From Chitinivibrionales bacterium (GTDB lineage: Bacteria; Fibrobacterota; Chitinivibrionia; Chitinivibrionales; WJKA01): a stretch of DNA of 64,000 bases. The notes beneath the pieces are model-generated. The model ran no database searches, had not been told where the DNA came from, and saw nothing but the letters and a program-made list of their open reading frames with translations. Both the position numbers and the translations under genes were made by a program. Location of the stretch: assembly GCA_038247415.1 (NCBI GenBank), contig JBBRUX010000009.1, positions 1 to 64,000 of the forward strand. The letters are read 5' to 3'. This document shows, one piece after another, positions 5,948 to 43,862 of this stretch (within the stretch, counting starts at the first letter, position 1; each line of letters begins with the position of its first letter).

Positions 5948-5966
5948 ATTGAATATGTATCTAATT

Positions 5967-6041
5967 TGGGCGTTGTAGGGATCGAACCTACGACATCCTG
6001 CTTGTAAGGCAGGTACTCTATACCAACTGAGCTAAACGCCC
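5967..6041 (-). tRNA. tRNA-Val(TAC), CCA not encoded
   Basis: GGGCGTTTAGCTCAGTTGGTATAGAGTACCTGCCT-TAC-AAGCAGGATGTCGTAGGTTCGATCCCTACAACGCCCA folds as a cloverleaf. Confidence 0.97.
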
Positions 6042-6045
6042 GGTA

Positions 6046-6273
6046 TTATTTACGGTTATCCTTGTTTTCTTTTCCTTTTGCAAGAAATGCAAAGGGCAAA
6101 AAAACAAGATATGTTAACACTAATATAATCGGAGCAACGCTTTGAGACAGTGGATTGTCTGCGGGACCCTGACCTAAAAGTATATAACCAACTATTAGTA
6201 AACCAATGCCTGCTAACAGGAGTTTATAGTTTAGTGCAGAAAACATAGAGTTCCTTTCAAATTCTGCCAACAA
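6046..6273 (-). CDS. DUF3098-like small two-TM membrane protein; likely start 6246
   Basis: 'MFSALNYKLLLAGIGLLIVGYILL...S.SVAPIILVL.Y' matches the DUF3098 pattern. Confidence 0.7.
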   Translation of the reverse strand: MLAEFERNSMFSALNYKLLLAGIGLLIVGYILLGQGPADNPLSQSVAPIILVLTYLVFLPFAFLAKGKENKDNRK

Positions 6274-6291
6274 AACTCACAAAGCTTATAA

Positions 6292-6320
6292 AAATTAGTA
6301 CATTGAAAATAAATTGTCAA
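6292..6320 (-). promoter_or_regulatory. Sigma70-type promoter for the DUF3098-tRNAVal-tRNAAsp unit
   Basis: TTGACA-N17-TAATTT on the minus strand. Confidence 0.6.
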
Positions 6321-6327
6321 GCCTATT

Positions 6328-6972
6328 TTATAACTTTAAATTGGAATTGTTCTGTTGTGCCTGCTGGTTTGTGTTTTGAGCCGTAAGCTCTTTGAGCCGC
6401 AGGCGCGTAAGTGCCGTTGCTTCGTTAAAAAGGGCTGCTAGGTTTTTCATCTCATCTCCTTTTCGGAGATGAACTTCATCGGTATAGTCTCCCTCGATTA
6501 TAGAATTGCATGCTTTTTGGAGTCGGTATACAGGCCCGGCAACTCTATGGGAGAAGAAAATGGTAAGGAGAACAATTTGTACGATAACAAGGAATATGCC
6601 TATGCCAAAGATCCATAAAAGCGAGGTGAAAATATCTGAACGATAATGTGGGTTAGTAGGAAGAGAACGGAGAAATTTTTGAATGTCGGAAATGAGCACC
6701 TGATATACTTCGGTAGAGGGCGCAGTTTGGTCTTGAAGCCGCAGCGCGATTGTATTTTCGACATCCTTTTTAACAAGCGTGGTAGTAAGCGATATAACAT
6801 TTTGGGCAGTGAGGTACAGGGTAAAGATCCAAAAAACAAGCATAATGAGCATGGGAATAAGAAAGGTAAGCATGTATCGCCCTTGAAATTTACGGTCGAT
6901 AAACACATGCTTGCGAATAAAGGCTGGTTTGGACTGTTCCATTTCGTTTCCTCCAGGGCACAATTTAAACAT
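6328..6972 (-). CDS. Two-TM HAMP-domain membrane protein; likely start about 6942
   Basis: 'FIDRKFQ.RY' N-terminus, two TMs, HAMP 'SHRVAGPVYRL...GD....LRKGDEM..LA..FN'. Confidence 0.8.
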   Translation of the reverse strand: MFKLCPGGNEMEQSKPAFIRKHVFIDRKFQGRYMLTFLIPMLIMLVFWIFTLYLTAQNVISLTTTLVKKDVENTIALRLQDQTAPSTEVYQVLISDIQKFLRSLPTNPHYRSDIFTSLLWIFGIGIFLVIVQIVLLTIFFSHRVAGPVYRLQKACNSIIEGDYTDEVHLRKGDEMKNLAALFNEATALTRLRLKELTAQNTNQQAQQNNSNLKL

Positions 6973-7073
6973 GCCTCTTTAACGTTTTTCCTGCGTGTCA
7001 ATCGGCTCATGGCGATGTTGACATGAGGGTTTAATTAATAATAATATACACTGCGCTCGAACACCGCTAATAT

Positions 7074-7781
7074 CTAAATAAGGCCAATCATATCACGAAT
7101 AGCTGTTTCGAGTCCGCTCAGGGATGCGCGGGCAACAATACTATGGCCAATATTCAGTTCCCGGATATATTCAAGCGACGCCACGGCAGATACATTGCGA
7201 TAATTCAGCCCATGGCCAGCATTAACCATTATCCCAAGCTTATGGGCTGCCATGCACGCTTCCCGCAAACGGATAAGTTCATCGTGTTGCGCTTTTCCCA
7301 AGGCATTCGCATAATACCCTGTATGAAGCTCGATGTAGGGTACTCCGAGCTTTGCAGCAGCCTTAATTTGATTGATATCAGGATCGATAAAGAGGCTTAT
7401 GAGGATTGCGCCACCCTGGAGTGCTTCAACTGTTTTTGCCAGCTCTTTTTCATTACCTGCTACTAAAAGCCCTCCCTCGGTGGTACGTTCTTCGCGCTTT
7501 TCCGGAACAAGCGTTACCATCCAAGGAACTACATCCCGTGCAATCGTCGTCATTTCTTGAGTTGCAGCCATTTCAAGGTTTAAATGGGTTTTGGTAACTT
7601 GTTTTAGAATGTATATGTCCCTGTCTTGCATATGACGGCGATCTTCACGTAAATGGGCTGTGATACCATGCGCTCCAGCCAGCTCAGCAATAATTGCTGC
7701 GTGCACGGGGTCGGGATCTGATCCGCCTCGCGCTTGACGGATTGTTGCAAAATGATCGATATTTACACCGAGTGTTGCCAT
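7074..7781 (-). CDS. pdxJ: Pyridoxine 5'-phosphate synthase
   Basis: [38 protein letters not shown] and NIGH.I motifs. Confidence 0.98.
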
Positions 7782-8941
7782 TATTTTCTCCTTGATTCGA
7801 TTGTGGGTGCCCGTGCACTTTTGACATCTTCTGGATGGTTGACTATTTCGGAGACGTATACAAGTTCGATACCCTTATGCTTTAGCGGATCGAGCGATTT
7901 TTTTAAAGCTTGTAGCGAAGCATTGGTAGGGGGAATCGAGACGATCAGGCTGCCTTTTTCTAAACTTTGGGATGCTGCATGCGCCAGGGATGAAGCAATC
8001 GACTCTTCTGTTGCGGTGCTATCGATTTCGATGAGAGCAATGCCATGAGGTACCTGGAGTTGCGCTGCTAATGCCTCTGCAACAGAATGCCGAGCTGTTT
8101 TAGAAGAAATGAAGAATCCATGATGCTTCTCTATTTCGCTGAGAATTATTTTCATTACACGGCTATCTCCCATTGCTCGGGATCCATAGATGTTCATGAA
8201 TCCCGAAAAATTAGGGATGATTCGAATATAGTCGGTTATACGAGATCTGATTTCTTTTTCGTCAAAATGAACCATAATTATTGATGGCTTTAAGGCACTT
8301 GGAACTGCACGTTCAGATTCGAGTGGAATAAGAATTATGCTTTCTTTCTTGTATTGTTCGGCAATGGTTGCAACCCATCCTGCTTTTTCGGAGAGTGCTG
8401 ATAGTGCTACGGTAAGCGGTTTGTCAAGATTAAAAAAATCGTTTGCAATGGTATTATCCGCAGAAACAAAATTCTGAATAATTATGGCAATTTTTGCTGT
8501 TTTGCTATAATACTTCATAGATCGATGTATAACGAGCGAAATTATTTGGGTACTATCATGTTTGTGCAGAAAGATGATTTTGCACCCATCTTGTTTTTCT
8601 AATAATAAACAATCAGAAATAGTATACCCACATTCTTTGGTAGCCAGAGTGAGCTGCCAAACGATCATCTCGATGGGTTTGCCTTTTGGAACGGTTGCCA
8701 CAAAAGAAACAGATGAATCTGTTTTGCTGATTCTTCTGACGATATCATCTGGTTTGGTTTCCATTGAAACGAGCGTGTTCTTTATTGCAAGTTCCAATTT
8801 TGCCGAAGATTGTTTTAAACCAGAAACAGAAGCAGTACTAGATGACCCCGGTTGTGAGCAGTTTACCAGTGCAAGGAGGATGCAGCACACGCAAAAAAAG
8901 GAGCCGAGGTGCTTGCTCGACGGAAATGTGATATAACTCAT
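7781..8941 (-). CDS. Divergent polysaccharide deacetylase (DUF610/YibQ-like) with an N-terminal extension
   Basis: 'AKIAIII', 'IPLE', '[11 protein letters not shown]...M..IL' and '[10 protein letters not shown]' follow the DUF610 pattern, but metal-binding residues are substituted. Confidence 0.7.
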
Positions 8942-27225: not shown

Positions 27226-30200
27226 TTAAAGCCCTAGCTTTTCATATTGACGAGTATTGCATGAGGCATTATTAAAATAGGGCGAAACATCGGTTTGATA
27301 AATTCCATCGAGATATATTGACGTGATACTATTTGGATCGCAATCGCCATTGTCATACCAGCGTATGCCGGTGCCTGCAAAGGTGAATGAGCAGGTGCTA
27401 CCGGGAATGTTAGATGTTTTAATTGCATCAGTGCAAATATCACTAACCCATGTTCCTGTGTAAACAAGAGAGGCGTTATCGGCATTGACCGAGATCCAAC
27501 TGATTCCGTTAAAATATTGAAGTTTGTCAATACCAGTTCCTACATTAACATTTTTAATGCGTATCGTATGCGATGGAACGTTTGTTGAAACTATAACTGT
27601 TGTGGTACTTGATTTAGCACCGCTCACTGCCTTTATTGTATACGTTCCAGCAGTATTCCCAGCAGTATAAAGACCCGTTGAAGAAATGGTGCCCCCGCCT
27701 GCAGTAACAGTCCACGTTGTGGTAGGTTGAGGTGACATTTGATTCCCAAATTGATCGAAAGCTGCATAGAATTGCTGAGTTTTGCCAGGATTTACCGTCA
27801 TGACTTTAGGGGTAACTGCAAATGTTGTTTGCGTTTGTTTTACCGTTACGGTAACTTGTGATCCTGTGCTTTGGTCAAATTTGTCTTCGATGAAAACCTC
27901 GCAAATGTACGTTCCAGCTTTATCGAATGTAACTGTCGTGTTTTTTGCAGTATTACTATTATTAGGGCTATAGGTCACAATGGATGTTGGGGTTTCTATA
28001 AACCATGAATAGGTAAGCTCAGATTCACCACCATCGTCGGACGCGAGCACCTTCAGCGCAGTTGTTTTACCAGTTACTGTAGTGGGTGTTGCGGTAGCAG
28101 CAGTAACAATAGTTGGAATTTTATTTGATGCCCAATTAACAAGAGAAAATTCATTGATCGTCCAATATGCCGACGCACCTGCAGTAAGCCAAACACGAAT
28201 ATAGCGTTTGTTTTGGGATGCAAATCCTGTTTTGGAAATGCCTGCTACTCCAGCAACGCTACTTTTAACGGTTGTCCACGTGATTTTATCGGCTGATACA
28301 TCAACGCGATACGTGCGTGGATAAGTAGTAGAGTTAGATTGATTATCCATGATTAACGAGTCGAACGTTTTTGCGCTTCCCAGATCAATCATGAACCAGT
28401 CACCCGATGCTTGATTGCGAAGGGTAGACCATGAAGAAGAAACATTTCCATCAATGCCAAGTTGAGCATTTACGGTTTGAATATTCGCCGAAGCTTTCCA
28501 CAGCGTTCGATCGAGAGTAATCAAAGAATTTGAGCAAGATCCGCTGAGGGGAACAGAAATAAGCGGAAAATCCATAGCGTTAGAAGCGACTTTCATTGTC
28601 CCGCTAAAGGTGTTGAGCGCATTGGGAGCAAATGTTCCCGTAAGAAGTGTTGAGCCGTTGGCCGGGATTGAAACCGGGGCAATTTTGTCTTGTGAAAAAA
28701 CTTTATTATCGATTGTTATAGACTGAACTGTGGTAGGCGCGTTCCCGTTATTAACGAGCATGATGCTTCGTGTAGCGCTAGTACCCAGTGGCATTGACCC
28801 AAAGCTAACGCTTACCGGAGAAACACTCGCCCGTCGAGTCGTATAGGCGCTATTAAAGAGGTACAAGCCATCTTGTCCTGAGTAAACATATTGACCAGCA
28901 ACTGTCACGGGCACGACACTGGTTCCAGACGATGGTATTGCGCACGAGGCGATAGTAACGGGGGCTATCCTGTCTGTGATGTCAAGAACTACAAAATTGG
29001 CTAGATACGGGGCAATTGTTGAATGGTTTGTAATATAGGCTAGGTTGCCAGATATCACCAATTTATCGACACTTTCTGTGACATTAAAATATGAAGATGC
29101 ATATTTTTTCGCAGGAGAGCTTGGGTTGGATATATCCCAGATTTGCAAACCGTTTGCGGTTCCCAGGTAAACATTATTCCCGTATAAAACTGCTTCTGTT
29201 AGTGTTGTAAGCGTTCCCATAGGGACTTGGCTTAGGAGTGATGGAGCCGATTTGTTTGCAACATTAAAAAGCGCAAATTGGCCATAATAAGAAACTGCAA
29301 CAGTAGATCCTTGTAAAGAAATTGATTTAGCTGCTGGTGAAGCTAATATTCCTGGAACGCTTGTGTAGGTTAGGCTTCCCATAAGGTCTGGCATCGTTGG
29401 TGATGCGAGACTATAGATAAAGAGCTGATCTCCAGATGCAAGATACAAATAGGTGTTGTCGGTAGCTAAAAATCCCGTTGAGGATGTTACTGGAGTCTCT
29501 TCTAGTAGTGCCAGAGGAGTGCTGGGGTCTGAAATGTCAAAAACTGTAATTTGACTACTATAGAATGAGTATAAGTATGAGCCAACCTTTACTGAACTTC
29601 CGCAAAGCCCATCTACCGTTGAGGCAATGATGGGGTTTGACTTATTAGTAATGTCCATCGTGACGAGTTGATAATCTAGGGAACAATACGCATAATTCCC
29701 GTTAATCAGAATGTTTGAGATTGCCGATGGGCTTGGTATTGATCCAATCGTATTCATAACGCTAATGGTAAGATCTTTGACTGTTTTTAATTCCGAATCG
29801 TCAGCAATGCAGCTTACAACATAGGTTCCCGGTTCACTGAAGATAAAATTGGTCGTAACAGTAGATGCTTTCTCAAAGAGTACGGTTCCAGGTCCACTTT
29901 TTTTCACCCATTTAGACGCAACAGGTATACCGTAGGGTAATCCATCATCCGTAATTGTAGTGCCAAGTCTGGCCACAAGACCTGTGGTGAGGTATACTGG
30001 TGATACAGGCATATTTATGATTGGAGGATTATTGTAAACGGGTGATTTTAGTTGAGTCGTTAGGATAGAAGTGCGGGACGTCCCACTTAAAGTAAATGGA
30101 ACCCCTGGAAAGTTGTTGAATGTAGTCCCTGCTTGTTCGTCAACAAACGTCATGTTGGAAACAGATAATGCAGTTGCATCATTGCTGATATCTCCAACGG

Positions 30201-31635
30201 TTAAATACCATTTCCAATTTTGCAGGTTGGTGATAAACGAAGATTCGATTAAATCGGTGTAGTCGATGGCAAAAGTTGCTTCAACGGGGCTAGTTGTTCC
30301 ATTATAACTATAATTGCTACCTATATTGCTAAAAATAAGTGGCGCCAATGTAGCAGATGCTGTTGTATTGGTTGGTACCGAAACACCAATTGACAAGGAT
30401 TGTTGAATGCGTTTTGCATGAGTCATGGTTATTTGGGCATAAGCACGAGGACGATATTGAGACCGGGCGGTAAGCCAGAAGGCTTTTTGATCAAAAATGG
30501 GAATTCGGGATGTAACACCAATGGCCCCGGGTACCATACTTGCTTTATTTAATGCGTCGTAGCTGATCCAGGCAAAACCACTATTGCCATAGCTTACACC
30601 CCAAGAGTTAGCAATCTTAAAAGCACCTTTTTCGCCATTGTTAACAACGCCGTTGTTGTTGAGATCAGCCCAAAGATTGTCGTTGTAACCCACAATAGTA
30701 AGTGCATGAGCTTGGCTGCCAAGGCTGTTTGCGTGGGCGATAAGTTGGCCAACATGTATGTCATCAGCAGATGTTGACGGATCATTTGAAATTGGAATAT
30801 ATGAGGCATTAAAGCTTTGCGAGCCAACTATAAGCACATATCCATTCGCGAGCATTTGTTTAGCATTGACAATTCCTCTTACGTCAAATTCTGGAGAAAT
30901 GGTTAAGTCTCCAAGCTGGTCGACGCGGTAATCCATGGCGCTGCGGTAAATAACCGAGTTCGTTGGCCATTTTAAAAAATTATTGCTAGCATCATCTGGC
31001 CACTCAGTGAGCGAAGGTGCACCATTTTCGAGGCTGATTCGCATAACTTTTTCGATAATTGTCCCACCATCATTGGTATTCACAAAATTATATGAAAATC
31101 GAGGCGAAAATAGCTGTTGCGGAGAAGTCCATCCTCGTGCTAAGCCCGTCATGTAGCCCAAGGCATAATAAACAACGGCATTTGGGACGCAGGTATTGCC
31201 AATTTGTTGGCGGATGGGTGGAAAATATGACGCGGTACTATTGTCAACAGCATCGGGCAGAATGGTGGTCGGATCTGCTGTCAAGGCGCTTTGGGCTGCA
31301 AGTTTTTGAGTGCCACGTGGTACGCTAGAAACATCTTGTCCCATAGGAGCAATGGTTACGCTTGAAGCGCTGATAGTGGGCTGATTCTTTTTTTTGAGCA
31401 TCTCATTAGTAAGGTCTAGTGCACGCTGGTTAGGTATAACGCTCGTTACGTGAACAAATTTAGTATTGGACCATGCAATATCTTCTGCCGTTGGAGCAAG
31501 AAGTCCCTTGGGTTGAGCTTTATCAAAAGCATCTGCAAAAAGACCGGATGCAAGACCCAAAAGTGCAATACCCATAATTGCAGACTTATTGCGCAGATGG
31601 AAATGCGTAGCACATGGATTTGAAAAAAATGACAT
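27226..31635 (-). CDS. Large secreted papain-family (C1A) cysteine protease with PKD/Ig, LVIVD repeats, ASH-like Ig, F5/8 discoidin and a C-terminal jelly-roll
   Basis: Q..GNTC, HALTIVGY and IANSWG catalytic motifs; 'DI.NP..P' LVIVD repeats; 'IDG...S.W...WFMIDLG' discoidin motif. Confidence 0.88.
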   Translation of the reverse strand: MSFFSNPCATHFHLRNKSAIMGIALLGLASGLFADAFDKAQPKGLLAPTAEDIAWSNTKFVHVTSVIPNQRALDLTNEMLKKKNQPTISASSVTIAPMGQDVSSVPRGTQKLAAQSALTADPTTILPDAVDNSTASYFPPIRQQIGNTCVPNAVVYYALGYMTGLARGWTSPQQLFSPRFSYNFVNTNDGGTIIEKVMRISLENGAPSLTEWPDDASNNFLKWPTNSVIYRSAMDYRVDQLGDLTISPEFDVRGIVNAKQMLANGYVLIVGSQSFNASYIPISNDPSTSADDIHVGQLIAHANSLGSQAHALTIVGYNDNLWADLNNNGVVNNGEKGAFKIANSWGVSYGNSGFAWISYDALNKASMVPGAIGVTSRIPIFDQKAFWLTARSQYRPRAYAQITMTHAKRIQQSLSIGVSVPTNTTASATLAPLIFSNIGSNYSYNGTTSPVEATFAIDYTDLIESSFITNLQNWKWYLTVGDISNDATALSVSNMTFVDEQAGTTFNNFPGVPFTLSGTSRTSILTTQLKSPVYNNPPIINMPVSPVYLTTGLVARLGTTITDDGLPYGIPVASKWVKKSGPGTVLFEKASTVTTNFIFSEPGTYVVSCIADDSELKTVKDLTISVMNTIGSIPSPSAISNILINGNYAYCSLDYQLVTMDITNKSNPIIASTVDGLCGSSVKVGSYLYSFYSSQITVFDISDPSTPLALLEETPVTSSTGFLATDNTYLYLASGDQLFIYSLASPTMPDLMGSLTYTSVPGILASPAAKSISLQGSTVAVSYYGQFALFNVANKSAPSLLSQVPMGTLTTLTEAVLYGNNVYLGTANGLQIWDISNPSSPAKKYASSYFNVTESVDKLVISGNLAYITNHSTIAPYLANFVVLDITDRIAPVTIASCAIPSSGTSVVPVTVAGQYVYSGQDGLYLFNSAYTTRRASVSPVSVSFGSMPLGTSATRSIMLVNNGNAPTTVQSITIDNKVFSQDKIAPVSIPANGSTLLTGTFAPNALNTFSGTMKVASNAMDFPLISVPLSGSCSNSLITLDRTLWKASANIQTVNAQLGIDGNVSSSWSTLRNQASGDWFMIDLGSAKTFDSLIMDNQSNSTTYPRTYRVDVSADKITWTTVKSSVAGVAGISKTGFASQNKRYIRVWLTAGASAYWTINEFSLVNWASNKIPTIVTAATATPTTVTGKTTALKVLASDDGGESELTYSWFIETPTSIVTYSPNNSNTAKNTTVTFDKAGTYICEVFIEDKFDQSTGSQVTVTVKQTQTTFAVTPKVMTVNPGKTQQFYAAFDQFGNQMSPQPTTTWTVTAGGGTISSTGLYTAGNTAGTYTIKAVSGAKSSTTTVIVSTNVPSHTIRIKNVNVGTGIDKLQYFNGISWISVNADNASLVYTGTWVSDICTDAIKTSNIPGSTCSFTFAGTGIRWYDNGDCDPNSITSIYLDGIYQTDVSPYFNNASCNTRQYEKLGL

Positions 31636-31826: not shown

Positions 31827-32970
31827 ATGCAGTCTTTTCAGGATATAAAATCCCCCGACGATGACTTCCGGCGCAATGCGACCGCGATGCTTGGAAGCCG
31901 CCCACGCGTTAATGTTCTGCGCAGACTGTTTCCTTTTTTGGGTCTGGCATTTATTGCAAGCATTGCTTATGTTGATTCTGGCAACTTTGCAACGAACATA
32001 GCGGGGGGTGCCCAATTTGGCTATTTGTTACTCTGGGTTATTGTAGTTAGCAATCTCATGGCGATGCTTATCCAAACGCTTTCCGCTAAACTGGGTCTGG
32101 TTACGGGTAAAAATCTTGCAGAGCAATGCAGGGAGCGATTACCTCGTTGGTTTGTATGGGTGGTGTGGTGCATAATGGAATCGGTTGCCCTCGCTACAGA
32201 TTTGGCAGAGTTTCTTGGGGCTGCACTTGGTTTTAACCTGCTCTTTGGTTTTCCGCTTATTGTAGGAGGTTTAATTACAGCCGTTGTGACGTTTCTTATT
32301 CTTGGTTTAGAACGGTATGGATTTAGGCCTTTAGGGCGCAACGGTAATGCCACATGCAATCTTTTTGCATAGCGCGCTAACCCAAGGGCGCATTGTGGTT
32401 CGCGATCCTGTTCAGCTTAAGCGTCTCGATCGTTTTGAAATTGCCGATGTTATTATAGCGATGGTTTTGGCCGGGATGGTAAATGCAGCCATTTTAATTA
32501 TGGCTGCTGGAACATTTCATTCTACAGGGCATCAATCGATTGCTACACTCGAAGAGGCCTACAAGACACTCGAGCCTCTTTTGGGGCCTGCAGCAGCCAT
32601 ATTTTTCGGATTATCACTGCTGATGTCTGGTTTAAGTTCTTCAACGGTTGGGACAAGTGCTGGTCAGGTTATTATGCAAGGGTTTTTAAAGCAGCATATT
32701 CCGATATGGCTTCGTCGATCTATAACAATCATCCCGTCTATTGTTGTTATTGCAATTGGACTCGATTCAACACGCACGCTCGTTATGAGCCAGGTCGTTC
32801 TGAGTTTTGGTTTGCCTTTTACCATTATTCCGCTTCTCTTTTTTACGTCAAATAAATCAATAATGGGAATCTTAGTTAATAATAAAATTACAACCATTGC
32901 AATGGCTCTCATAACCATTCTTATTGTTTCTCTTAATGTTTATCTGATATTTCAATTAATCAAAGGATAG
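31827..32970 (+). pseudogene. mntH: Nramp Mn2+/Fe2+ transporter MntH disrupted by an internal deletion and frameshift near 32334
   Basis: 5' ORF has [11 protein letters not shown] and [11 protein letters not shown]; 3' frame has [13 protein letters not shown] and SQVVLSF; the segment between GFRPL and GATVMPH is missing. Confidence 0.85.
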
Positions 32971-33904: not shown

Positions 33905-35038
33905 ATGCCGTACGAAAATTCAGCGGGCACCACTTTTGATCGAATGCTCGTAACCTACCGTGTTACAACATCAGATTTGCAGACTGCACGCATTGTCGCC
34001 AGCGACATTGCAAATGAACAAACCGTAGAATGTCCGCCTGCGTGCATTCCTGAAGAAATTCTCGAAAATGCAATTGTTGGCAGAGTCGAAACAGTAAAGC
34101 AGCTTGATATCCCAGGAAAATTTCATATTGAAATCAGCTATCACCCCCACGTGACAGGCTTTTCTGTACCTCAAGTGCTTAATGTATTGTTTGGAAATAT
34201 TTCGCTTAAAAATAATGTCAGGATAATCGACCTCAATTTAGGAGAATCGCTTTATTCACATTTTTTGGGCCCGCGCTACGGCATTTCCGGATTACGAGAA
34301 ATATGTGGGGCCCACACAAGGCCTCTCGCCTGCACAGCACTCAAACCTTTGGGGTCATCGGTAGAATCTTTGGCGCACAAAGCGTATCAATTTGCACTCG
34401 GGGGAATTGATATTATCAAAGACGATCATGGTCTTGCCGATCAGTCTTTTCATCCTTTTGCACAGAGGGTGAAAAAATGTGCAGAAGCTATTGCGCTCAG
34501 TAAATCAAAAACGCTCTATATGCCCATGATTTCTGGCCGATTCGATCAGATTGAAGAGCAGATTAAATGTGTTATAGATAATGGTTTAAAGGGTATCCTT
34601 ATCGCTCCTATGCTTGTAGGGTTCGACACAGTACGCTATATTTCTCAAACATATCCTCTTGTAATCTTAGGGCATCCTTCCTGGACAGGTGGCAATTTTG
34701 CCTCCCCTGATCATGGTTTAGATCCTGCTGTGCTACTCGGCACACTTTTTAGGCTTGTGGGTGCCGATGCATCAATCTTCCCTAATTCAGGCGGACGTTT
34801 CCCTTTTACGCAACAAGAATGTTCGGATATAGCCGATGCCTTAAGAAATCCGAAGGGCGCTTGGAAACCCTCTTTTCCTAGTCCCGCAGGCGGAATGCAG
34901 CTCTCTAATGTTACCGGTCTTGTTGAGCAATTTGGACCCGATACGCTTTTGTTACTAGGGGGATCTCTTATGGAACAACCACAAGGAATAACCGCTGCTA
35001 CCCAGGAGTTTATGCAGGCATTGACTCAGTACGAGTAG
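33905..35038 (+). CDS. RuBisCO-like protein (form IV, KDDH type)
   Basis: EQT.E, FGN.S, ALKP.G, GGIDIIKDDHGL, HP, P.PAGG and GG motifs. Confidence 0.92.
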   Translation: MPYENSAGTTFDRMLVTYRVTTSDLQTARIVASDIANEQTVECPPACIPEEILENAIVGRVETVKQLDIPGKFHIEISYHPHVTGFSVPQVLNVLFGNISLKNNVRIIDLNLGESLYSHFLGPRYGISGLREICGAHTRPLACTALKPLGSSVESLAHKAYQFALGGIDIIKDDHGLADQSFHPFAQRVKKCAEAIALSKSKTLYMPMISGRFDQIEEQIKCVIDNGLKGILIAPMLVGFDTVRYISQTYPLVILGHPSWTGGNFASPDHGLDPAVLLGTLFRLVGADASIFPNSGGRFPFTQQECSDIADALRNPKGAWKPSFPSPAGGMQLSNVTGLVEQFGPDTLLLLGGSLMEQPQGITAATQEFMQALTQYE

Positions 35039-35761: not shown

Positions 35762-37309
35762 TTAAAAGTCAATTATAAGAAGGGTAATGTCATCTTCTGG
35801 TGCAGTATGTGCACCACAGAATGTTTTGTGGCGCAAAAAGATTGTTTCCATAGCTTCTTTGGGAGAATGAGTGAGTCCTTCAATAACAGCGTCTTCGAGC
35901 CTAGGGAGATCAAACATCTCCTCGGCGGCATTATGACTTTCGGTAATACCGTCTGTAAAGAGAACGAGCCGATCGCACCCGGGGATGTACTCCGAAATAA
36001 TTTCATGCAGCATCATATCGGGAAAAATTCCAAGGAAAAGCCCATCGGCGCTAATATGCTCACAGGTTTTTGTGGCTTTGTTCGCGCGTAATATTGGGCA
36101 ATGGCCAGCAGATGAATGGGTAATTGTTTTGTTTCGGGTATCGACAATGGCATAAAAAACAGTAACGAAATTGTCGGTTTTAATCTCATTCATGAATGTT
36201 GTGTTAATGCGCTCAAGTGTTTTTTGGGGGGATGATTCATTGTGAGCATTGGATTTTAACACAACTTTTACCATAGACATAATAAGCGCTGATGCAATGC
36301 CATGTCCCGAAACATCGGCTACAATAATTCCATAGCGATCTTCCCCAAGCGGAAAAACATCGTAATAATCGCCGCCCACAGCAATAGCGGGAATATACCG
36401 CGCAGCGATTGTAAACGGTTTTATGTTCTGCAATTCGGAGGGCAATAACCCTTCCTGGATGCTTTTCGCTTGCTTAAGGTCGTTATTTATTTTGGTTTGC
36501 GCGATTTGAAGATCTCTGTTGACAATTCGTAATTGGTCGTTTGCAGAGGTGAGCGAGGTGTTTGCTTTTTCGAGTTCGTTTAAAATTCTAAAGTTCTCGA
36601 TAATGATGCCAGCAAAATTAAGTATTGTTGACAATGTTGAAATATCATCGCTTGTGATTGTGGTATCCGAATTGTTGCGATCTATCCAGAGCACGCCTTC
36701 GGCTTTAAAACATTGACATGCAATACATTTGGATCTCCGTTCGTTTTCGGAGAGTGCGCCCAAAAGCTCTCCCGAGCCGGGTATCGACCAGCAATAAGGG
36801 TTGAATGAACCATATGCCGGACATGTCTGTCGATTGCACGATTTATACTCCCAGCATTTTCGGCTGGCTTTAGAAATGAGGGGCATTACAATATAACGGT
36901 TGCTTGCCAAAAGCTTGCAGAATACATCATTATCAGGATCTGGCTGATCAACAATGAGATGCCTGTTGAGAAAAATTGCATCGGTTATGTCGCCACCTTC
37001 AAATCCAAGCGGTATCGAAAGGGAGGTGCGGTCGATATTTTCTATGCCCACCCACGAGTCGGGAATCAATTGAAAGTTTGGGGCATCGATTCTAAAAAGA
37101 ATAACACGGTTGAACTGCAAAATTTCAACAATGCCCAAAAGCATTGTTTTGGTGATTCCAGGAAGATCGGTAGAAGAATTCATGACCTTAACGAGCTCAT
37201 TAATAAGCGAATTGGTCATGAGCTGTAATTTAAGCTGGTCATTTTCTGCTTTGATCGATTCGATAAATAGATCGGGCTCTTGGTCTGAAGATTCTTCGGG
37301 AGGGTACAT
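35762..37309 (-). CDS. GAF + SpoIIE/PP2C Ser phosphatase (RsbU-like) with a Cys-rich insert
   Basis: VGGDYYD, ADVSGHG, LFTDGITE and DDITL motifs; GAF interrupted by CWEYKSC...CPAY...CW...CIAC. Confidence 0.92.
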   Translation of the reverse strand: MYPPEESSDQEPDLFIESIKAENDQLKLQLMTNSLINELVKVMNSSTDLPGITKTMLLGIVEILQFNRVILFRIDAPNFQLIPDSWVGIENIDRTSLSIPLGFEGGDITDAIFLNRHLIVDQPDPDNDVFCKLLASNRYIVMPLISKASRKCWEYKSCNRQTCPAYGSFNPYCWSIPGSGELLGALSENERRSKCIACQCFKAEGVLWIDRNNSDTTITSDDISTLSTILNFAGIIIENFRILNELEKANTSLTSANDQLRIVNRDLQIAQTKINNDLKQAKSIQEGLLPSELQNIKPFTIAARYIPAIAVGGDYYDVFPLGEDRYGIIVADVSGHGIASALIMSMVKVVLKSNAHNESSPQKTLERINTTFMNEIKTDNFVTVFYAIVDTRNKTITHSSAGHCPILRANKATKTCEHISADGLFLGIFPDMMLHEIISEYIPGCDRLVLFTDGITESHNAAEEMFDLPRLEDAVIEGLTHSPKEAMETIFLRHKTFCGAHTAPEDDITLLIIDF

Positions 37310-37468: not shown

Positions 37469-38152
37469 GTGAATATTCAGTACAGCAAGAAAAAGGAAGA
37501 AATGCGCAAAGACCCAGTTATGGATCTGATGGTCAAGGCAAAGGATTTTGCTCAAAATCAATCGCAGATTCTCCTGATTGTAGTTGGAGTAGTTCTTGTT
37601 AGTTTGGTTGGCTACTGGGCGTATAATGGAATGCAAAAAGATAAGCTTTCCAAGGCACAAGATGTTTTTGGAAAAGCTATGATTGCCTATGAGAAAAACG
37701 ATTTTTCTGCTGCAACAAGCGCTTTTAAAGAAGTAATCGAATCGTATCCGCAAAGTCCACATGCAGCAATGAGCGCTTTTTTGCTGGGCGATATCGGTGC
37801 AAAAATGAACAATTTCGATGATGCAATCTCATGGTATGAGAAAGCAAGTCGTAAAGCATCAAAAACTTCATTTATAGAAGGTGCAGCTCTGGAAGGACTT
37901 GCAACCAATTACGAGTCAAAAGGTGATATTCCTAAGGCGATCGAATGCTTCGAAAAAGCAGCAGCCGATCCTTCTATTGCGTATCGTACCTCGTCGATCC
38001 GCTGGAAATTGGCATTGCTTAACGAAGAAATCAAACAATACGATAAAGCGCTATCCTATTGCAGTCAAATTGTTTCCGATACTTCTGCACAGATGTTTCG
38101 TCAGAAAGCAGAAAATTTAAAAATCGAGATTGAAAATAAAAAAGCCCTGTAA
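37469..38152 (+). CDS. Single-TM TPR protein (YfgM-like)
   Basis: AGGAGG RBS, 'KKEEMRKDP' N-terminus, one TM and TPRs ('YPQSPHA'). Confidence 0.8.
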   Translation: MNIQYSKKKEEMRKDPVMDLMVKAKDFAQNQSQILLIVVGVVLVSLVGYWAYNGMQKDKLSKAQDVFGKAMIAYEKNDFSAATSAFKEVIESYPQSPHAAMSAFLLGDIGAKMNNFDDAISWYEKASRKASKTSFIEGAALEGLATNYESKGDIPKAIECFEKAAADPSIAYRTSSIRWKLALLNEEIKQYDKALSYCSQIVSDTSAQMFRQKAENLKIEIENKKAL

Positions 38153-38283: not shown

Positions 38284-39423
38284 ATGTCAGACATGACAGA
38301 ACCGATGCTTGCACAGGATAATTCCGATTGGGTTCTAGCTTTTCTCGAGTCGGTTGACTGCACAACACCGCTGCATCAAATATACTCGTACCTTCTTGAA
38401 AAAATCTGCGTTCAAGCTCAATGTGCACAGGCTTTTTTGGCGCTTTCAGATGCTTCCAAGTGGTGGGAGGTGTTTGCGTACACCCTCGAAAACTCCGTAG
38501 GGGAGTGGGTTGATATTCAGAAAACTAACAGGTACACGAAACGCACATTTTCTGGTCAGTATGATCACAGTTCTCCCCTTGAAATCGCTGATATCTTTCC
38601 AACCGCTACCTATACCAGTATTCCTTTCAAAGCCGAATTTGCTCAGTCGGCATGGCTTATTCTGCCCGTGTCGCATGCGGCAAAGAGTATTCCGCTATTG
38701 GGAAGGCTCTGTTCGCATCTTTTAACTCAAAAATCTATATATTACTATGGACTTGCTACCGAATGTAAAGCGCGAGGCGCTAAGACTTTATCGACCATGA
38801 TCCATGATATTCGTAATCCACTCTCGGGAGTTACTGGTTTTGCGCAACTGCTTAAGAGAAAATTGACTGATGCAAAACAAATTGAATATTCTGAAATTAT
38901 TCTAACAACTCTTCGCCGTATCGAACAAACCGCATCTGAACCCGTACGCTTTGTTCGGGGGGATAGCGCGGAGGTTGAGATGGTTGCATGCAATGTTGAT
39001 GAGATCCTTGCAACGACGCTTGATGGTATGAGCCAGAGCTCAACGATGCAGCATGTTCGGGTATTCTCTCGTTTGGAAAGTGGAGCTTCAATTCAATTTG
39101 TTCCAGAGTGGCTTAAGCGGATAATTTCTGCTCTCATGGAAAATGCTACGGTATCGATTGCCGAAAAAGGCGAGATTAGCGTCTCCTCGCACCGCTTTGA
39201 GACACGCGTGGAAATTGTCATCCAAGACAGCGGCAAGGGAATACCGATTATGGTTCGTAATCATGTGGTTAAACCGTTGTTTGCATTCGATAAAGAAAAA
39301 TCAGCAGGTCTAGGCTTGGCAATGGTAAGTTATATGGCCAAAGTAGGCGGTGGTACGGTGCAGGTTTCATCGGTTCCCTGCTATGGAACGCGCTGTGTTC
39401 TTTCATTTCCCCTCGGCTTGTAG
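38284..39423 (+). CDS. Cytoplasmic sensor histidine kinase
   Basis: H-box HDIRNPL, N-box LMENA, DSGKGI and GLGL; no TM. Confidence 0.88.
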   Translation: MSDMTEPMLAQDNSDWVLAFLESVDCTTPLHQIYSYLLEKICVQAQCAQAFLALSDASKWWEVFAYTLENSVGEWVDIQKTNRYTKRTFSGQYDHSSPLEIADIFPTATYTSIPFKAEFAQSAWLILPVSHAAKSIPLLGRLCSHLLTQKSIYYYGLATECKARGAKTLSTMIHDIRNPLSGVTGFAQLLKRKLTDAKQIEYSEIILTTLRRIEQTASEPVRFVRGDSAEVEMVACNVDEILATTLDGMSQSSTMQHVRVFSRLESGASIQFVPEWLKRIISALMENATVSIAEKGEISVSSHRFETRVEIVIQDSGKGIPIMVRNHVVKPLFAFDKEKSAGLGLAMVSYMAKVGGGTVQVSSVPCYGTRCVLSFPLGL

Positions 39424-39506: not shown

Positions 39507-39860
39507 ATGAATTTTTTGGTATTAGACGATTTGAAAAAACGTAGGTCAGTTTTAGCCGATGCATTGCAGAAAAAACGACATTCAGCAGTTACCTGTGTTA
39601 TCAGCCAAGATTTTATCAACGCGGTTGATGGTCCTTTGCCAGATAAGATTTTAATCGAAATGAAGACCTGGCTGCAAGGAAAATCAGTCTATAATTATTT
39701 CAATATTTTGCCTAAACTTGAAAATATCCCCATAGTGTTGTACAATACTACTGATACTCATGCATCAATAGTTGGTCGCACACCTAACGAAAAAGATCGC
39801 ATTCTGCCAGAAGGCATTAAGCTTGATGAAATTATAAGCATTGCCGAGCAGGATGTATGA
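39507..39860 (+). CDS. Degenerate receiver-like protein
   Basis: GGAGG RBS; 'FLVLDD' beta1; 'PDKILIE' with Glu at the phospho-Asp position; 'IPIVLY'. Confidence 0.6.
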   Translation: MNFLVLDDLKKRRSVLADALQKKRHSAVTCVISQDFINAVDGPLPDKILIEMKTWLQGKSVYNYFNILPKLENIPIVLYNTTDTHASIVGRTPNEKDRILPEGIKLDEIISIAEQDV

Positions 39861-39873: not shown

Positions 39874-41709
39874 ATGGCCAGTCGGGCATCACAAGTGTTT
39901 GTCTTTGCAGATACCGACAATGGCGGGGTCATTCATGTTGCAAATATTAAAGGCGGTGTAGGTAAGTCCACTGTTGCGACCAACCTTGCGGCCGCGCTTG
40001 GTAAAAAAGGACCAACCCTGCTCATCGATCTCGATGCGCAGGGGAGTGCCACCTTTGCATATGGTAGAGATCCAGCCGAATTCTCCTTTTCTTCATGGGA
40101 TCTGTTTCGACATCGATACTCTCCCGAAAGCTCCTCAGATAAAAAGAAAACATTTCGATTAACCTTGCCAAGGCTTGAGGCAATGGTTTTTTCACCTATT
40201 CTGGGAGTAGGGAATATTGCCAAGCTTTGTGTGCGCATAGAACAAGGCCTGGATCTTATTCCAGCAAATGGCTCGCTTTTTAATACCGTGCGATCGTACC
40301 ATCTCGAGAATTTTCTTTTTAATCTGGAAATCCTTCGTGAATTTTATAAATACATTATCCTCGATACTCCCTCTGTCTGGAATCGACTTACGCGCATGTT
40401 GTATTGTAAGAGCGATTTGAATCTTATTCCCGTTACGCTTAATGCTCTAAGTACCCGCAGTTTGAGAGAATACCTTATCAATGTTAAAAAACTCTCTAAT
40501 CGTAATACTCGGGTCAGGGTGCGAATTGTCAAGAATGAAGTGTATGGTCGTCAGGATTCTGCAATAAAAGGCAAAACGCGCACCATGTTCGAAAATCGCA
40601 AATTTCTTGAGTCATTGTGCGAGCAGATAGTGGTTAAAAATGAAACCGGCGTATCGGTGATTCCTCAAACAATGATGTTTGACCTTGAGATTCCCGAATC
40701 AGCAACAGTGCGAGATGCGCAGGATGAAGGTCTTGCAGTTGCTCATTTTAAGCAATATTCCACAGCTTCAAAAGCGTTTTTCGATCTTGCTCAAAAAGTG
40801 CAGTATGTTTTAAATACGAAATCTGCGCCACCAACCCGAAATATATGGGATCGTCGTGACGAAATTGTTCGTCCCTTTGTTCACGCTGCGGGCATTGCAG
40901 GGTTTGCGTTTTTATGGTCGCTTAACCCTAAAGCAGATAATCAAATTCCTCCACGCCCTATAGCACCAGTTCAGCTCGTTGTGCCGCCAACGGGGAGCGT
41001 AGCCTATACAACGGGAGATGGAGAGCCCCTTTTTAGAATTGCAAAATATTCTATTTGTCATTTTAAAGCGATCGTCCCCGATAATGAAGATATCTATCGA
41101 TACCTTTTAGAAACTCTCGATATTTACAATAGAACTCGTTTCGAGTCTGAACAGAAAATTGCTTCCGCGGAAACGGTGCCCAGTGGTATTACGCTCCATT
41201 TTTATCCGCCAAGTACTCTTTCTAACCCTCGTGAAAAACAGATTCTCCCTGCGTACGAATTTTTCATGTCTCTGGTTCAAGATAAATATCCGTATATAAC
41301 CGGAGATTGGTGTGAACGCGGCACAGGAGGTGGAACTCCTCATTATGGGATAGATATCGCGGGCACTCGGGGATCTGAAATTATTTGTCCCATCGATGGA
41401 ACTGCTTATTTGCTCGATAATCCGAGCGTTGGAAAATGTATTGGTGTAGTTCGTGATGGTACCGTGCTCTTTTTTGCCCATATGGATCAGCGCTACTTTA
41501 ATTCGGGTGAACATATTAAAAAAGGAATGCCTCTTGGTAAATTAGGGCTTACAGGACACACGAGTGGACCCCATGTACATGTGGGATATGGACTAAAGTC
41601 TCCTGCAGCCGATGGCCTTCCTTTTGGCAATTCCTACTACAAAGTAACCGACCCCAAATTATTTTTCTACCGACAGGCATTTATTGCAAGTATCACTCCT
41701 AACGAGTAA
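39874..41709 (+). CDS. ParA/Soj-family ATPase fused through a TM to LysM-like and M23 peptidase domains
   Basis: KGGVGKST, LIDLDAQG, IILDTP, IPESATVRDAQ; TM FVHAAGIAGFAFLWSL; HYGID, AHMD and HVH motifs. Confidence 0.85.
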   Translation: MASRASQVFVFADTDNGGVIHVANIKGGVGKSTVATNLAAALGKKGPTLLIDLDAQGSATFAYGRDPAEFSFSSWDLFRHRYSPESSSDKKKTFRLTLPRLEAMVFSPILGVGNIAKLCVRIEQGLDLIPANGSLFNTVRSYHLENFLFNLEILREFYKYIILDTPSVWNRLTRMLYCKSDLNLIPVTLNALSTRSLREYLINVKKLSNRNTRVRVRIVKNEVYGRQDSAIKGKTRTMFENRKFLESLCEQIVVKNETGVSVIPQTMMFDLEIPESATVRDAQDEGLAVAHFKQYSTASKAFFDLAQKVQYVLNTKSAPPTRNIWDRRDEIVRPFVHAAGIAGFAFLWSLNPKADNQIPPRPIAPVQLVVPPTGSVAYTTGDGEPLFRIAKYSICHFKAIVPDNEDIYRYLLETLDIYNRTRFESEQKIASAETVPSGITLHFYPPSTLSNPREKQILPAYEFFMSLVQDKYPYITGDWCERGTGGGTPHYGIDIAGTRGSEIICPIDGTAYLLDNPSVGKCIGVVRDGTVLFFAHMDQRYFNSGEHIKKGMPLGKLGLTGHTSGPHVHVGYGLKSPAADGLPFGNSYYKVTDPKLFFYRQAFIASITPNE

Positions 41710-42474: not shown

Positions 42475-43047
42475 TTATTGAACCGTCTTTTTTTGTTTGC
42501 AGCCCGTACTATCCGCGTTCATGGGGCACATTTTGCCATCCATTTGGCAATGCTTTCCTCCCTGATCTTCTCCCCATTTATTGCATTGGGCACCAGATTG
42601 GTTGGCAAGATGGCAAGAAGCCATTTTTTGGAATTGTTCATCGGTAAGTACTGATTTAAGCTGCAAAAGATAGTCAAAGCGTGCTTTAGTTGCTTCGGTT
42701 GCGAGTTGCCCACTCTGAACGCTATACGTTTCCAATAGCATTGTATCGGGAGTTTTCTTAAGAAACTCATCTTTAATTTTTAATCGCAGAGTGGCAGACT
42801 TTTCCTGTTGGGCAGTTCGCGCTACCTTCCCTTGTTCGTGAAGAGCCTTGAGCTTGGTTTTTTGATCTGGGGTAAGGTTGAGCTCCGCAAATTGATTATG
42901 CCGTTCCCCAGTTCCTTTTTTTTGACATTGCGTTGCAGGGTCGGCCGCAAGAGCGAATGTTCCCCAAACGAGAATAGTTGACATGATGCATAAAGTTTTG
43001 ATACGCATGTTTTTTCCTTTGAAAAAATGAATATTATTCGGATGCAT
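42475..43047 (-). CDS. Spy/CpxP-family periplasmic chaperone; likely start 43008
   Basis: Signal peptide; 'LNLTPDQ' and 'VLTDEQ' LTxxQ motifs. Confidence 0.85.
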   Translation of the reverse strand: MHPNNIHFFKGKNMRIKTLCIMSTILVWGTFALAADPATQCQKKGTGERHNQFAELNLTPDQKTKLKALHEQGKVARTAQQEKSATLRLKIKDEFLKKTPDTMLLETYSVQSGQLATEATKARFDYLLQLKSVLTDEQFQKMASCHLANQSGAQCNKWGEDQGGKHCQMDGKMCPMNADSTGCKQKKTVQ

Positions 43048-43342
43048 TATCGGCTAAAACAATAGTCGATAGCTCAGGTTCAGACAGAGTACCATTTAAG
43101 AATTCATTTGCCTCATGGAGATCCTCCTCGATTTCCGCTGAGAGAGCAGTTTGATGTGAAGGTGTATGGAAAACACTAAAAGCAATAAACGATGTTACGG
43201 TTAACGCTGTCATGCATGAAAGCAAAAGTGCTCTCCGAGCATGACGCCGTATTTTTGAACGCCTATAAATGGTTTCAAACAGGTGCAATGGAACATCGGG
43301 TATCGACTGTTCCAAAGCTTGGTCGCGATGTCGTAGGTTCAT
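43034..43342 (-). CDS. Putative single-TM anti-sigma factor
   Basis: Lies between the ECF sigma and Spy/CpxP genes; basic stretch followed by one TM. Confidence 0.6.
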   Translation of the reverse strand: MNLRHRDQALEQSIPDVPLHLFETIYRRSKIRRHARRALLLSCMTALTVTSFIAFSVFHTPSHQTALSAEIEEDLHEANEFLNGTLSEPELSTIVLADNASE

Positions 43343-43862
43343 ATGAGCCCTCCCTTGATAATTTTTCTTTAATACGGCATAGGGCTACACGCAACGCACC
43401 AGCAGATCGGTGAGTAATTTCTGAGAGTTCCTCAAAGGAAATCCCCGATATTTCATGTGCCATTAGTAGAAATCTATCGTTTGGACTGAGCATTTTTAAG
43501 GTATCAGAAAGAATGATTTTATCAACACTTGATATTTCTTGAGCGATGATGGTTTCGGGAGTAATAGTAGGGCTTCTTTTTTGCGCATGTCGTTTTTCTT
43601 TGAGTGCTATCCCGATTGATGTGTTGTAGCTTATGCGAAATAACCATGTTGAAAAGGCCGATTTGTTATTAAATTTATGCAAGTTGCAAAAAATGCGAAT
43701 AAAGGTTTCTTGCAACATGTCTTCGCAGAGTTCCTTGTTACCATTGGCAGTTCGGTATATGACGCGCCACAGGAACGGAGCATAGTGTTCGTAGAGTGCT
43801 TTGCACGCGCTTTTGTCGGATGCTTGAGCTTGAGCAATAATTGTAGAATGCAGCTCTTTCAT
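43275..43862 (-). CDS. ECF sigma factor
   Basis: 'EDMLQETFIRIF', 'FSTWLFRI..N' and region 4 'G.SFEELSEI'. Confidence 0.93.
   Translation of the reverse strand: MKELHSTIIAQAQASDKSACKALYEHYAPFLWRVIYRTANGNKELCEDMLQETFIRIFCNLHKFNNKSAFSTWLFRISYNTSIGIALKEKRHAQKRSPTITPETIIAQEISSVDKIILSDTLKMLSPNDRFLLMAHEISGISFEELSEITHRSAGALRVALCRIKEKLSREGSYEPTTSRPSFGTVDTRCSIAPV

Follow-up and report, generated by a model that had tools for sequence, protein, structure and literature searches.

A ParA/MinD-type ATPase joined in one chain to an M23 endopeptidase domain and conserved across the Fibrobacterota

In the FtsEX–EnvC and FtsEX–RipC/PcsB systems, control over a LytM/M23-domain protein in the periplasm is exerted across the membrane by an ATPase in the cytoplasm. 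That ATPase, FtsE, is of the ABC type and sits on a permease with four helices; EnvC is a protein of its own, catalytically dead, that activates amidases. The gradients formed by ParA/MinD ATPases rely on membrane or nucleoid cycling, and their relatives BcsQ, FlhG, and TadZ organize envelope machines. In TadZ/CpaE, a receiver-like domain is fused to a MinD/ParA-type ATPase that serves a pilus secretion system, and structures of receiver-like domains joined to such ATPases have been solved. M23 enzymes act on the cell wall. A bitopic M23 DD-endopeptidase tied to a cytoplasmic organizer that sites wall remodeling is known from the LmdC–bactofilin pair of Hyphomonas neptunium and Rhodospirillum rubrum (PMC10945521); LmdC is described there as having a cytoplasmic tail of about 38 residues with a β-hairpin, which binds a polymer formed by a separate bactofilin, and a coiled coil on the periplasmic side. 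Here, we describe a 611-residue protein encoded at 39874..41709 (+) of a 64,000-nucleotide stretch from a Chitinivibrionales bacterium (positions 1 to 64,000 of contig JBBRUX010000009.1, assembly GCA_038247415.1; hereafter, the window), in which a ParA-type ATPase, a presumed transmembrane (TM) helix, a LysM-like module, and an M23 endopeptidase domain follow one another in a single chain that has full-length relatives. We read this fusion protein as a bitopic peptidoglycan endopeptidase that would be switched or placed from inside the cell by its cytoplasmic ParA module together with a receiver partner, a reading that we hold to be about evenly poised between right and wrong.

The fusion protein shares with the ParA/MinD family (Soj, MinD, FlhG/FleN, BcsQ, McdA, and MipZ) the P-loop KGGVGKST, the A′ aspartates, Walker B, and the fold. 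Where these proteins rely on DNA binding or on an amphipathic helix that attaches reversibly, the fusion protein is permanently anchored by its presumed TM helix and joined to a presumed periplasmic enzyme; it further differs from them in an insertion at about residues 86 to 107, in an invariant block at residues 217 to 242, and in having no ParB, MinE, or McdB-type partner among the 11 neighboring open reading frames (ORFs) scanned, in line with a preliminary description of this DNA, which had seen no parB nearby. FtsEX–EnvC, which together with LmdC–bactofilin comes nearest in concept, differs in each of its parts: here, the ATPase is of the ParA type, there is one helix and one polypeptide, and the M23 domain has all its catalytic residues. 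TadZ/CpaE is alike in pairing a CheY-like or atypical receiver domain with a ParA/MinD-type ATPase at the membrane, a pairing that is predicted in the present case; it is unlike in that the 117-aa receiver here has a gene of its own and the ATPase shares its chain with a wall hydrolase. ShyA, MepM, NlpD, and DipM carry a wall-binding LysM-type module ahead of the M23 domain in the periplasm, and the fusion protein has a LysM-like, putatively wall-binding one at this place in its presumed periplasmic part, but the former are soluble proteins or lipoproteins without a cytoplasmic domain, and the module of the fusion protein has no Pfam LysM score and a much longer second helix and loop. Finally, like LmdC, the fusion protein is a presumed bitopic M23 enzyme whose cytoplasmic N terminus is linked to a periplasmic hydrolase; unlike in LmdC, a ParA-type ATPase of 313 residues makes up the cytoplasmic part of the chain, the spacer is LysM-like, and no bactofilin is encoded among the 11 neighbors. 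Full-text literature searches, whose coverage leaves subscription journals outside, found no description of a ParA–M23 fusion, in agreement with the initial impression that no protein of this architecture has been characterized; the proteins themselves are already in public databases under generic names.

Domain architecture of the fusion protein

The ORF is a single frame of 611 codons without interruption, as first described, and the strand opposite it is closed by many stops. The family scan proposed in the preliminary description places two Pfam domains above their cut-offs: AAA_31 over residues 19 to 210 (E 3.6e-22, 79.6 bits against a cut-off of 27) and Peptidase_M23 (PF01551), also found by a genome-level search, over residues 489 to 571 (E 2e-13, 50.8 bits against a cut-off of 28.7). 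Weaker Pfam matches to CbiA, ParA, MipZ, and BcsQ lie at the P-loop end; the CBP_BcsQ match corresponds to the first 40 residues, and the BcsQ matches are confined to the P-loop region (20–56 in Pfam and 19–66 in NCBIfam). All NCBIfam matches are subthreshold, the best being ParA_partition (57.6 bits against an equivalog cut-off of 180), with minD_bact at 23.8 bits against 212.9, a weak match to CpaE_hom_Actino (E 5.1e-4), and weak matches to ShyA, ShyC, MepM, and DipM over residues 474 to 571. With Pfam scores above the gathering thresholds and NCBIfam scores below their cut-offs, the protein thus falls in both superfamilies and in no curated equivalog.

The ParA/MinD-type ATPase domain, presumed to be cytoplasmic, spans residues 1 to 313 (39874..40812, +) and is delimited by the AAA_31, CbiA, ParA, and MipZ matches and by Foldseek. 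KGGVGKST occupies residues 26 to 33, DLDAQG residues 52 to 57, and DTP residues 164 to 166; the deviant Walker A motif with its signature lysine, the A′ aspartates, and the Walker B aspartate are all present, the A′ (D52 and D54) and Walker B (D164) roles being assigned by analogy with Soj and MinD. In an alignment of 27 full-length members (A1), whose relatives are 50 to 59% identical, K26 to T33, D52, L53, D54, Q56, G57, S58, and D164-T165-P166 are invariant (27/27), and the three motifs of the preliminary description therefore stand intact where it had placed them. The same alignment reveals an invariant family-specific block, RIVKNEV...GK..T..ENR at residues 217 to 242, comprising R217, K220, N221, E222, V223, G225, G233, K234, T237, E240, N241, and R242. 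Invariance across a family at 50 to 59% identity puts these features far beyond chance. The AlphaFold2 model built with A1 has a mean predicted local distance difference test score (pLDDT) of 69.9, with confident C-terminal domains and poorly defined stretches at 86–107, 219–236, and 319–335; the ATPase domain thus carries a poorly modeled, family-specific insertion at about 86 to 107. A Foldseek comparison of the N-terminal domain with the PDB returns Soj as the best match (9a6n_A, E 4.8e-14, TMt 0.78, from a model whose mean pLDDT is only 69.9), together with 6iub, 2bek, BcsQ 6yb5, McdA 6non, FlhG 4rz3, and MinD 1hyq, over an E range of 4.8e-14 to 1e-8. The N-terminal domain has the SIMIBI-class ParA/MinD superfamily fold; a sandwich dimer and ATP hydrolysis would follow by analogy.

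The hydrophobic stretch FVHAAGIAGFAFLWSL (residues 335–350; 40876..40923, +) is presumed to form the single TM helix, and AlphaFold2 models a helix at residues 335 to 349. Its best 19-mer has a mean Kyte–Doolittle value of 1.32, second in the window protein to 1.45 at residue 104. The sequence of the segment is not conserved, but its position is, the top hydrophobic 19-mer falling at the same place in 26 of the 27 aligned sequences (start 328–374, Kyte–Doolittle 1.31–2.39); the hydrophobic segment first described accordingly holds up as a conserved place with a modeled helix. Lys and Arg residues are more numerous on the N-terminal than on the C-terminal side of the segment in 16 of 26 relatives, equal in seven, and fewer in three, and the window protein has five at 314–334 versus two at 350–372. 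The protein has no N-terminal segment resembling a signal peptide. One hydrophobic helix and this charge bias point to an N-in/C-out topology. The helix is followed by a Pro-rich, presumably periplasmic linker (residues 351–372; 40924..40989, +), defined from the alignment by the motif PRPIAPQQL, in which R361, P362, A364, and P365 are invariant and N351, P360, Q366, Q367, and L368 nearly so.

The LysM-like module (residues 376–446; 40999..41211, +) includes YTTGDGEPLFRIAKY at 378–392 and VPSGITLHFYPP at 435–446 and is drawn as a β-α-α-β unit with a long second helix from a model and from VIA-align. The model of residues 366 to 470 (54 sequences; pLDDT 89, predicted template modeling score 0.80) runs in the order strand 376–379, helix 386–398, helix 404–421, strand 440–443, and helix 454–467. 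Pfam LysM (PF01476) gives no match to the fusion protein at E ≤ 1, and Foldseek with the mid-domain model gives nothing at E ≤ 0.001, several of its weak rows being LysM domains. VIA-align was run against 48,161 chains and carries the warning that Z under 8 is common by chance; 14 of its first 16 rows are LysM or LysM-like by their titles, at Z of 5.9 to 3.9, within that chance range. They include the LysM-like domain of a contractile injection system baseplate (7aeb_M; Z 5.9, root-mean-square deviation [rmsd] 2.9, 57 aligned), Ecp6 (4b9h_A; Z 4.9, rmsd 2.5, 53 aligned), Kbp (7pvc; Z 4.8, rmsd 2.9, 61 aligned), 4uz2_A (Z 4.5, rmsd 2.4, 50 aligned), and the MltD LysM domain (1e0g; Z 3.9, rmsd 2.7, 48/48 residues aligned). 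These comparisons argue modestly for a LysM-like fold, outside the Pfam LysM family, whose second helix and loop are unusually long. The LysM-like stretch of the preliminary description thus keeps its location and, at Z values under 8, a modest resemblance to LysM.

The M23 metalloendopeptidase domain, recognized from Pfam and from invariant residues, spans residues 476 to 600 (41299..41673, +) and contains HYGID at 490–494 and HVH at 567–569. H490, D494, H536, H567, and H569 are invariant in 27/27 sequences of A1; their division into metal ligands and catalytic residues follows LytM and lysostaphin. The domain opens with a family lead-in, TGDWCERGxGGGxPH, in which T476, G477, D478, W479, C480, R482, G483, G485, G486, G487, and P489 are invariant. 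All metal and catalytic His/Asp residues being present, the domain looks active, and the intact zinc ligands noted at the outset are confirmed by this invariance and by a Pfam score above cut-off. The invariance also bears on a reversed logic, in which the LysM-like and M23 part would be a wall anchor immobilizing a ParA-type organizer of cargo such as pili, flagella, chemoreceptor arrays, or a polysaccharide synthase. This arrangement, which we regard as very unlikely, would fit the envelope machines organized by BcsQ, FlhG, and TadZ, the CBP_BcsQ match in the first 40 residues, and the name “BcsQ,” suggestive of the last of these cargoes, that the Joint Genome Institute (JGI) gives to many members (the other product name among database matches is “AAA family ATPase”). 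However, the BcsQ matches cover the P-loop region only, and we treat the JGI name as an automatic label from that region; no cellulose, pilus, or flagellar genes occur among the 11 neighboring ORFs scanned, and a mere anchor would have no need of five invariant catalytic and metal residues. The degenerate LytM factors EnvC and NlpD are reported to lose their M23 catalytic residues (PMC10945521).

Conservation across the Fibrobacterota and Walker-less relatives

A word-indexed search of 5.8 billion clusters returned 250 matches, the best 120 of which are 604 to 650 aa long and come from five sources, with coverage of 97 to 100% and identity of 50 to 59%, each harboring both PF01551 and PF13614; the organisms named among the matches are Chitinivibrionales, Chitinispirillaceae, and “Fibrobacter sp.” metagenome-assembled genomes (MAGs). 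In an exhaustive HMMER search of 1.84 billion representatives, the identity of full-length members falls as low as 37%. Scanning the GTDB representative genomes yielded 13 full-length loci, all from Fibrobacterota MAGs and 11 of them with an intact single frame; P-loop patterns account for the remaining 67 loci that were kept, which are ordinary ParA genes. Of 296 Fibrobacterota genomes searched in six frames, 241 have a match at E ≤ 1e-10, some of which are only ParA-level (E 1e-11 to 1e-15; several genomes of g11 and g22 and 7/32 of family f17), and none of the 12 genomes of family f18 has one. Among the matches listed, 67 genomes from many families have one match that spans at least residues 16 to 581, and 65 of these are free of in-frame stops, the other two having one TGA each. 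In family f13 and in most families of the order to which the window belongs, nearly every genome has the protein. We conclude that the fusion gene is real and conserved across the phylum Fibrobacterota; the search for full-length homologs put forward in the preliminary description finds the fusion kept full length across families, its halves not being separate genes.

These data also dispose of the possibility that the ORF is an assembly chimera or two genes merged by sequencing error, which we consider so improbable that it can be set aside. Such a worry is natural for a window taken from a metagenome-type assembly of 99 contigs, and in two of the 13 related loci, the frame is broken in two (L007 5980..7841, 427 + 172 aa; L011 5992..7821, 512 + 93 aa). 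Both breaks are isolated, each with intact relatives, and are probably frameshift errors or local decay. Against a chimera stand the single full-length frames in about 67 genomes (listed rows), in the best 120 clusters, and in 11 of the 13 GTDB loci; because the architecture is conserved full length, the worry is removed and the idea of a chimera or split gene refuted. The junction was also to be checked in sequencing reads; Logan contigs of three runs span the ATPase–TM–LysM junction without a difference, which lends weak support because these runs may be the source sample of the assembly. A further run, X4, contributes only four 151-base pieces, too little for independent evidence of habitat.

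The HMMER search retrieved a second set of proteins, 450 to 670 aa in length, that match only residues of about 372 to 606 and in which Pfam finds M23 only, plus a weak AAA_31 match in two. Walker A is absent from all five “intermediate” and all 20 “group B” sequences of this set, versus a KGGxG[KR][ST] motif in 33/33 sequences of the intact type; GPHxH is kept in 32/33 intact-type, 5/5 intermediate, and 20/20 group B sequences. In profile–profile comparison, the Walker-less and intact groups align collinearly, and because a match persists when only the N-terminal parts are compared (hhalign probability 96.6%, E 6.6e-10, 135 columns), the Walker-less N-terminal domains are ParA-derived. In an unrooted maximum-likelihood tree of the LysM-like and M23 part (47 rows, with P0126 dropped as lacking the GPHxH anchor), group B forms one side of a 100/100 branch, and the five intermediate forms group with the intact P0124 and P0131 in a 96/89 clade. 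With an ancestral intact state, the ATPase motifs would have been lost at least twice. Family f13, for which the most genomes of any family were searched, has a match in 141/151 genomes, and its listed rows cover only residues of about 337 to 600, in open frames of about 420 to 534 aa; judged from sequence, the f13 form is the retained TM–LysM-like–M23 half with a ParA-derived pseudo-ATPase, devoid of Walker A, as its N-terminal domain. The link between the Walker-less form and Fibrobacter rests on one named group B member (P0163, “M23 family metallopeptidase [Fibrobacter sp.]”), on ESM Atlas labels (where a Fibrobacterota cluster of 505 aa neighbors that of the fusion), and on family f13; of 10 clusters of Walker-less proteins consulted, seven bear no protein name.

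Retention of the periplasmic half beside a pseudo-ATPase suggests that ATP turnover is dispensable for the core function in the Walker-less lineages. Taken further, this leads to a housekeeping endopeptidase with a cytoplasmic scaffold, in which TM–LysM-like–M23 would do the job, the ATP chemistry would be a dispensable relic, and the N-terminal domain would chiefly offer a platform to which other proteins bind, such as those that drive elongation or division. The 25 Walker-less sequences that all keep GPHxH, the persisting ParA homology of their N-terminal domains, the repeated motif loss on the tree, and the prevalence of the Walker-less form in f13 are each what this explanation would lead one to expect. 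We nonetheless judge it distinctly unlikely. In the window lineage, the ATPase motifs are invariant at 50 to 59% identity; together with KGGxG[KR][ST] in every intact-type sequence, this argues for strong purifying selection on the nucleotide chemistry.

The adjacent receiver gene and the gene neighborhood

The fusion gene starts 13 nt after a 117-aa ORF (39507..39860, +) encoding a divergent CheY-like receiver, an assignment drawn from PF00072 in family members and a profile match. The receiver ORF has a strong AGGAGG site and the fusion gene an upstream AAGGA, and the two genes are probably cotranscribed. A receiver gene lies directly upstream of the fusion in 9 of the 13 related loci, and inspection by eye adds L082 and L083, which come from two genomes outside this family. 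PF00072 matches five of the seven receiver-family members (best E 1.2e-9) but not the window copy, and two database relatives carry it; the family profile aligns end to end (1–115) with the Spo0F and RpfC receivers at E of 7.7e-5 to 9e-4. The acceptor position is E52 in the window, Asp in four and Asn in two of the other six aligned sequences, and, by eye, Asp in L013, L082, and L083. An invariant N80 takes the usual Thr position, and the KP lysine is present in five of seven sequences, replaced by Gln in L010 and absent in the window; as a family, these receivers thus do not hold the canonical set of phospho-acceptor Asp, Thr/Ser, and Lys. The invariant residues are T54, W55, G58, Y62, Y64, and F65.

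We subjected residues 1 to 322 of the ATPase domain (A1) and the receiver family (A2) to complex prediction, each with its own alignment, and obtained a score of 0.65, versus 0.21 for the best of three controls. Of 157 solved complexes, 116 attain the mark used, as do 2 of 215 mismatched pairs; this calibration is rough here since our own alignments were used. The runs share at least 59% of contacts, with a partner pLDDT of at least 83. Predicted contacts involve receiver residues 8, 32–34, 54, 57–61, and 63–65 and ATPase residues 10–11, 13–14, 46–47, 125, and 155–159; since these include invariant or nearly invariant residues of both families (T54, G58, Y64, and F65 of the receiver; F11, D13, G46, P47, R155, and Y158 of the ATPase), the predicted contact gains weight. 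The model supports, as a prediction, binding of the receiver to the ATPase domain.

Farther upstream in the window lie a histidine kinase of 379 aa with HisKA and HATPase_c domains (38284..39423, +) and a membrane-anchored tetratricopeptide repeat (TPR) protein of 227 aa (37469..38152, +; TPR_21, YfgM-like), the latter also upstream in 9 of the 13 loci. A kinase between the TPR and receiver genes is seen among these loci only in L013, a Chitinivibrionia MAG with the most distant full-length member, where the order TPR, histidine kinase, receiver, and fusion is as in the window; with two such occurrences, the kinase was rejected as a conserved partner and is no general part of the system. The gene for a SpoIIE-type PP2C phosphatase of 515 aa (35762..37309, –) points away from the TPR gene on its upstream side, is placed likewise in 5 of the 13 loci, and may belong to the same regulatory neighborhood. 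On the 3′ side, a gene for a 726-aa TPR and SLT lytic transglycosylase (L013 7866..10046, +) overlaps the fusion stop codon in L013, and in L082 (G241, a 1.6-Mb single contig; 5304..8238) the order is a receiver-like gene, the Walker-less 554-aa fusion P0142, and MurB. Peptidoglycan genes are thus found 3′ of the fusion in two distant members, and the receiver gene persists beside the pseudo-ATPase form. The window's own downstream genes (a 220-aa ORF without a family, an LTXXQ protein, an extracytoplasmic function (ECF) sigma/anti-sigma pair, and DUF4139) were not found in any of the 13 loci. Just downstream of the fusion in the window, 42475..43862 (–) encodes an ECF sigma factor of 195 aa, a possible anti-sigma factor of 102 aa, and an LTXXQ/Spy-CpxP-like periplasmic protein of 190 aa, likely an envelope-stress cluster.

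The window genome also encodes six other M23 proteins, a canonical 261-aa Soj, two Amidase_3 proteins, and FtsZ. A search of this 96%-complete assembly did not find MinE, and MinC reaches 25.4 bits, below its cut-off. Some spatial system is thus still unaccounted for, which favors ParA-style positioning, the role envisaged in the preliminary description, in which the ATP-bound domain would sit on the nucleoid or a polar landmark as a spatial guide rather than an on/off switch, and the anchored endopeptidase would be spread over, or kept from, defined regions of the cell. The Foldseek grouping of the N-terminal domain with Soj/ParA, ParA_partition as the best NCBIfam match, and the full set of intact ATPase motifs lean the same way. 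However, the ParA_partition score is far below its equivalog cut-off, a canonical Soj is already present, and the 11 neighbors include no ParB or other known cargo adaptor. Moreover, a permanent TM anchor precludes the membrane or nucleoid cycling behind ParA/MinD gradients, and the pseudo-ATPase relatives would be unable to cycle. The anchor, the missing ParB-type partner, and the noncycling relatives make classic gradient positioning less likely, and we consider this alternative unlikely; cytoplasmic regulation or scaffolding fits at least as well.

Several further features of this genome were observed. Separate ParA and M23 genes are neighbors elsewhere in it, where the canonical Soj-like ParA, with a frame of 261 aa, and another M23 gene, with a frame of 288 aa, occupy one strand at a distance of about 1.7 kb (G000 C2:82534-85030). 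In the window, an Nramp-type transporter is spread over two overlapping ORFs (31827..32372 and 32347..32970, +; Nramp profile positions 1–116 and 172–356), reflecting either a frameshift, a broken gene, or an assembly error. A 377-aa protein similar to the RuBisCO large chain (33905..35038, +) matches PF00016 at E 5.9e-17 over catalytic-domain positions 1 to 171 only and may be RuBisCO-like (form IV). Finally, 27226..31635 (–) encodes a presumably secreted 1469-aa protein with LVIVD repeats and ASH/HYDIN-like Ig, F5/8 type C, PKD-like, and Big_2 domains.

Putative control of the endopeptidase from the cytoplasm

In the bitopic reading that we favor, residues 1 to 313 would act as a ParA/MinD-type ATPase in the cytoplasm, one helix would cross the inner membrane, and a LysM-like wall-binding module and an M23 zinc endopeptidase would lie in the periplasm. 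ATP binding would lead two cytoplasmic domains to dimerize as a ParA-type sandwich via the signature lysine K26, as in Soj and MinD, and the sandwich dimer would pair or reorient the two TM helices and the periplasmic modules, so that the cytoplasmic nucleotide state would set where or when cross-links are cut by the endopeptidase. The CheY-like protein would be the cytoplasmic, signal-reading partner that biases the ATPase cycle, and in some members, the receiver signal would come from the adjacent histidine kinase. We infer in this manner the topology of the fusion protein, its dimer switch, the bonds that it would cleave, and its role in the cell, whether in growth, division, or shape.

A number of observations weigh against this proposal. 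The TM segment of the window protein itself is marginally hydrophobic, and its helix is modeled at low confidence (pLDDT of about 50 to 62). No receiver gene is found at E ≤ 1e-5 in 4 of the 13 loci, nor next to the fusion in the one f13 genome examined. With E52 at the acceptor position, no KP lysine, and no Pfam family, phospho-control is doubtful in the window organism, and the outcome of the complex prediction may in part reflect likeness to the solved TadZ/CpaE structures. Furthermore, the Walker-less lineages keep intact M23 motifs, so the enzyme can apparently work without ATP turnover. A more specific version of the same proposal, which we hold only tentatively and on balance doubt, is an inside-out device in which the receiver, kinase-fed in some members, would set the dimer state of the ParA domain and thereby gate the periplasmic endopeptidase; it would be ancestral to the Fibrobacterota and simplified in f13.

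Few examples have been solved of how potentially lethal wall hydrolases are controlled from the cytoplasm in space and time, FtsEX–EnvC and bactofilin–LmdC being such cases. If our reading is true, the fusion protein would be a third solution with a mechanism of its own, in which a ParA/MinD nucleotide switch and an active endopeptidase share one chain, and the ParA/MinD fold would serve here as a permanently membrane-tethered switch for a periplasmic enzyme and not for a cargo-positioning gradient. The inside-out device, if true, would amount to a direct wire from two-component signaling and the ParA nucleotide switch to wall cleavage. The occurrence of intact-ATPase and pseudo-ATPase versions in sister lineages, with a candidate regulator encoded next door, provides a natural experiment. 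Near-universal in most families of its order and in f13, where one member is named Fibrobacter sp., the fusion protein likely matters for the envelope biology of these organisms.

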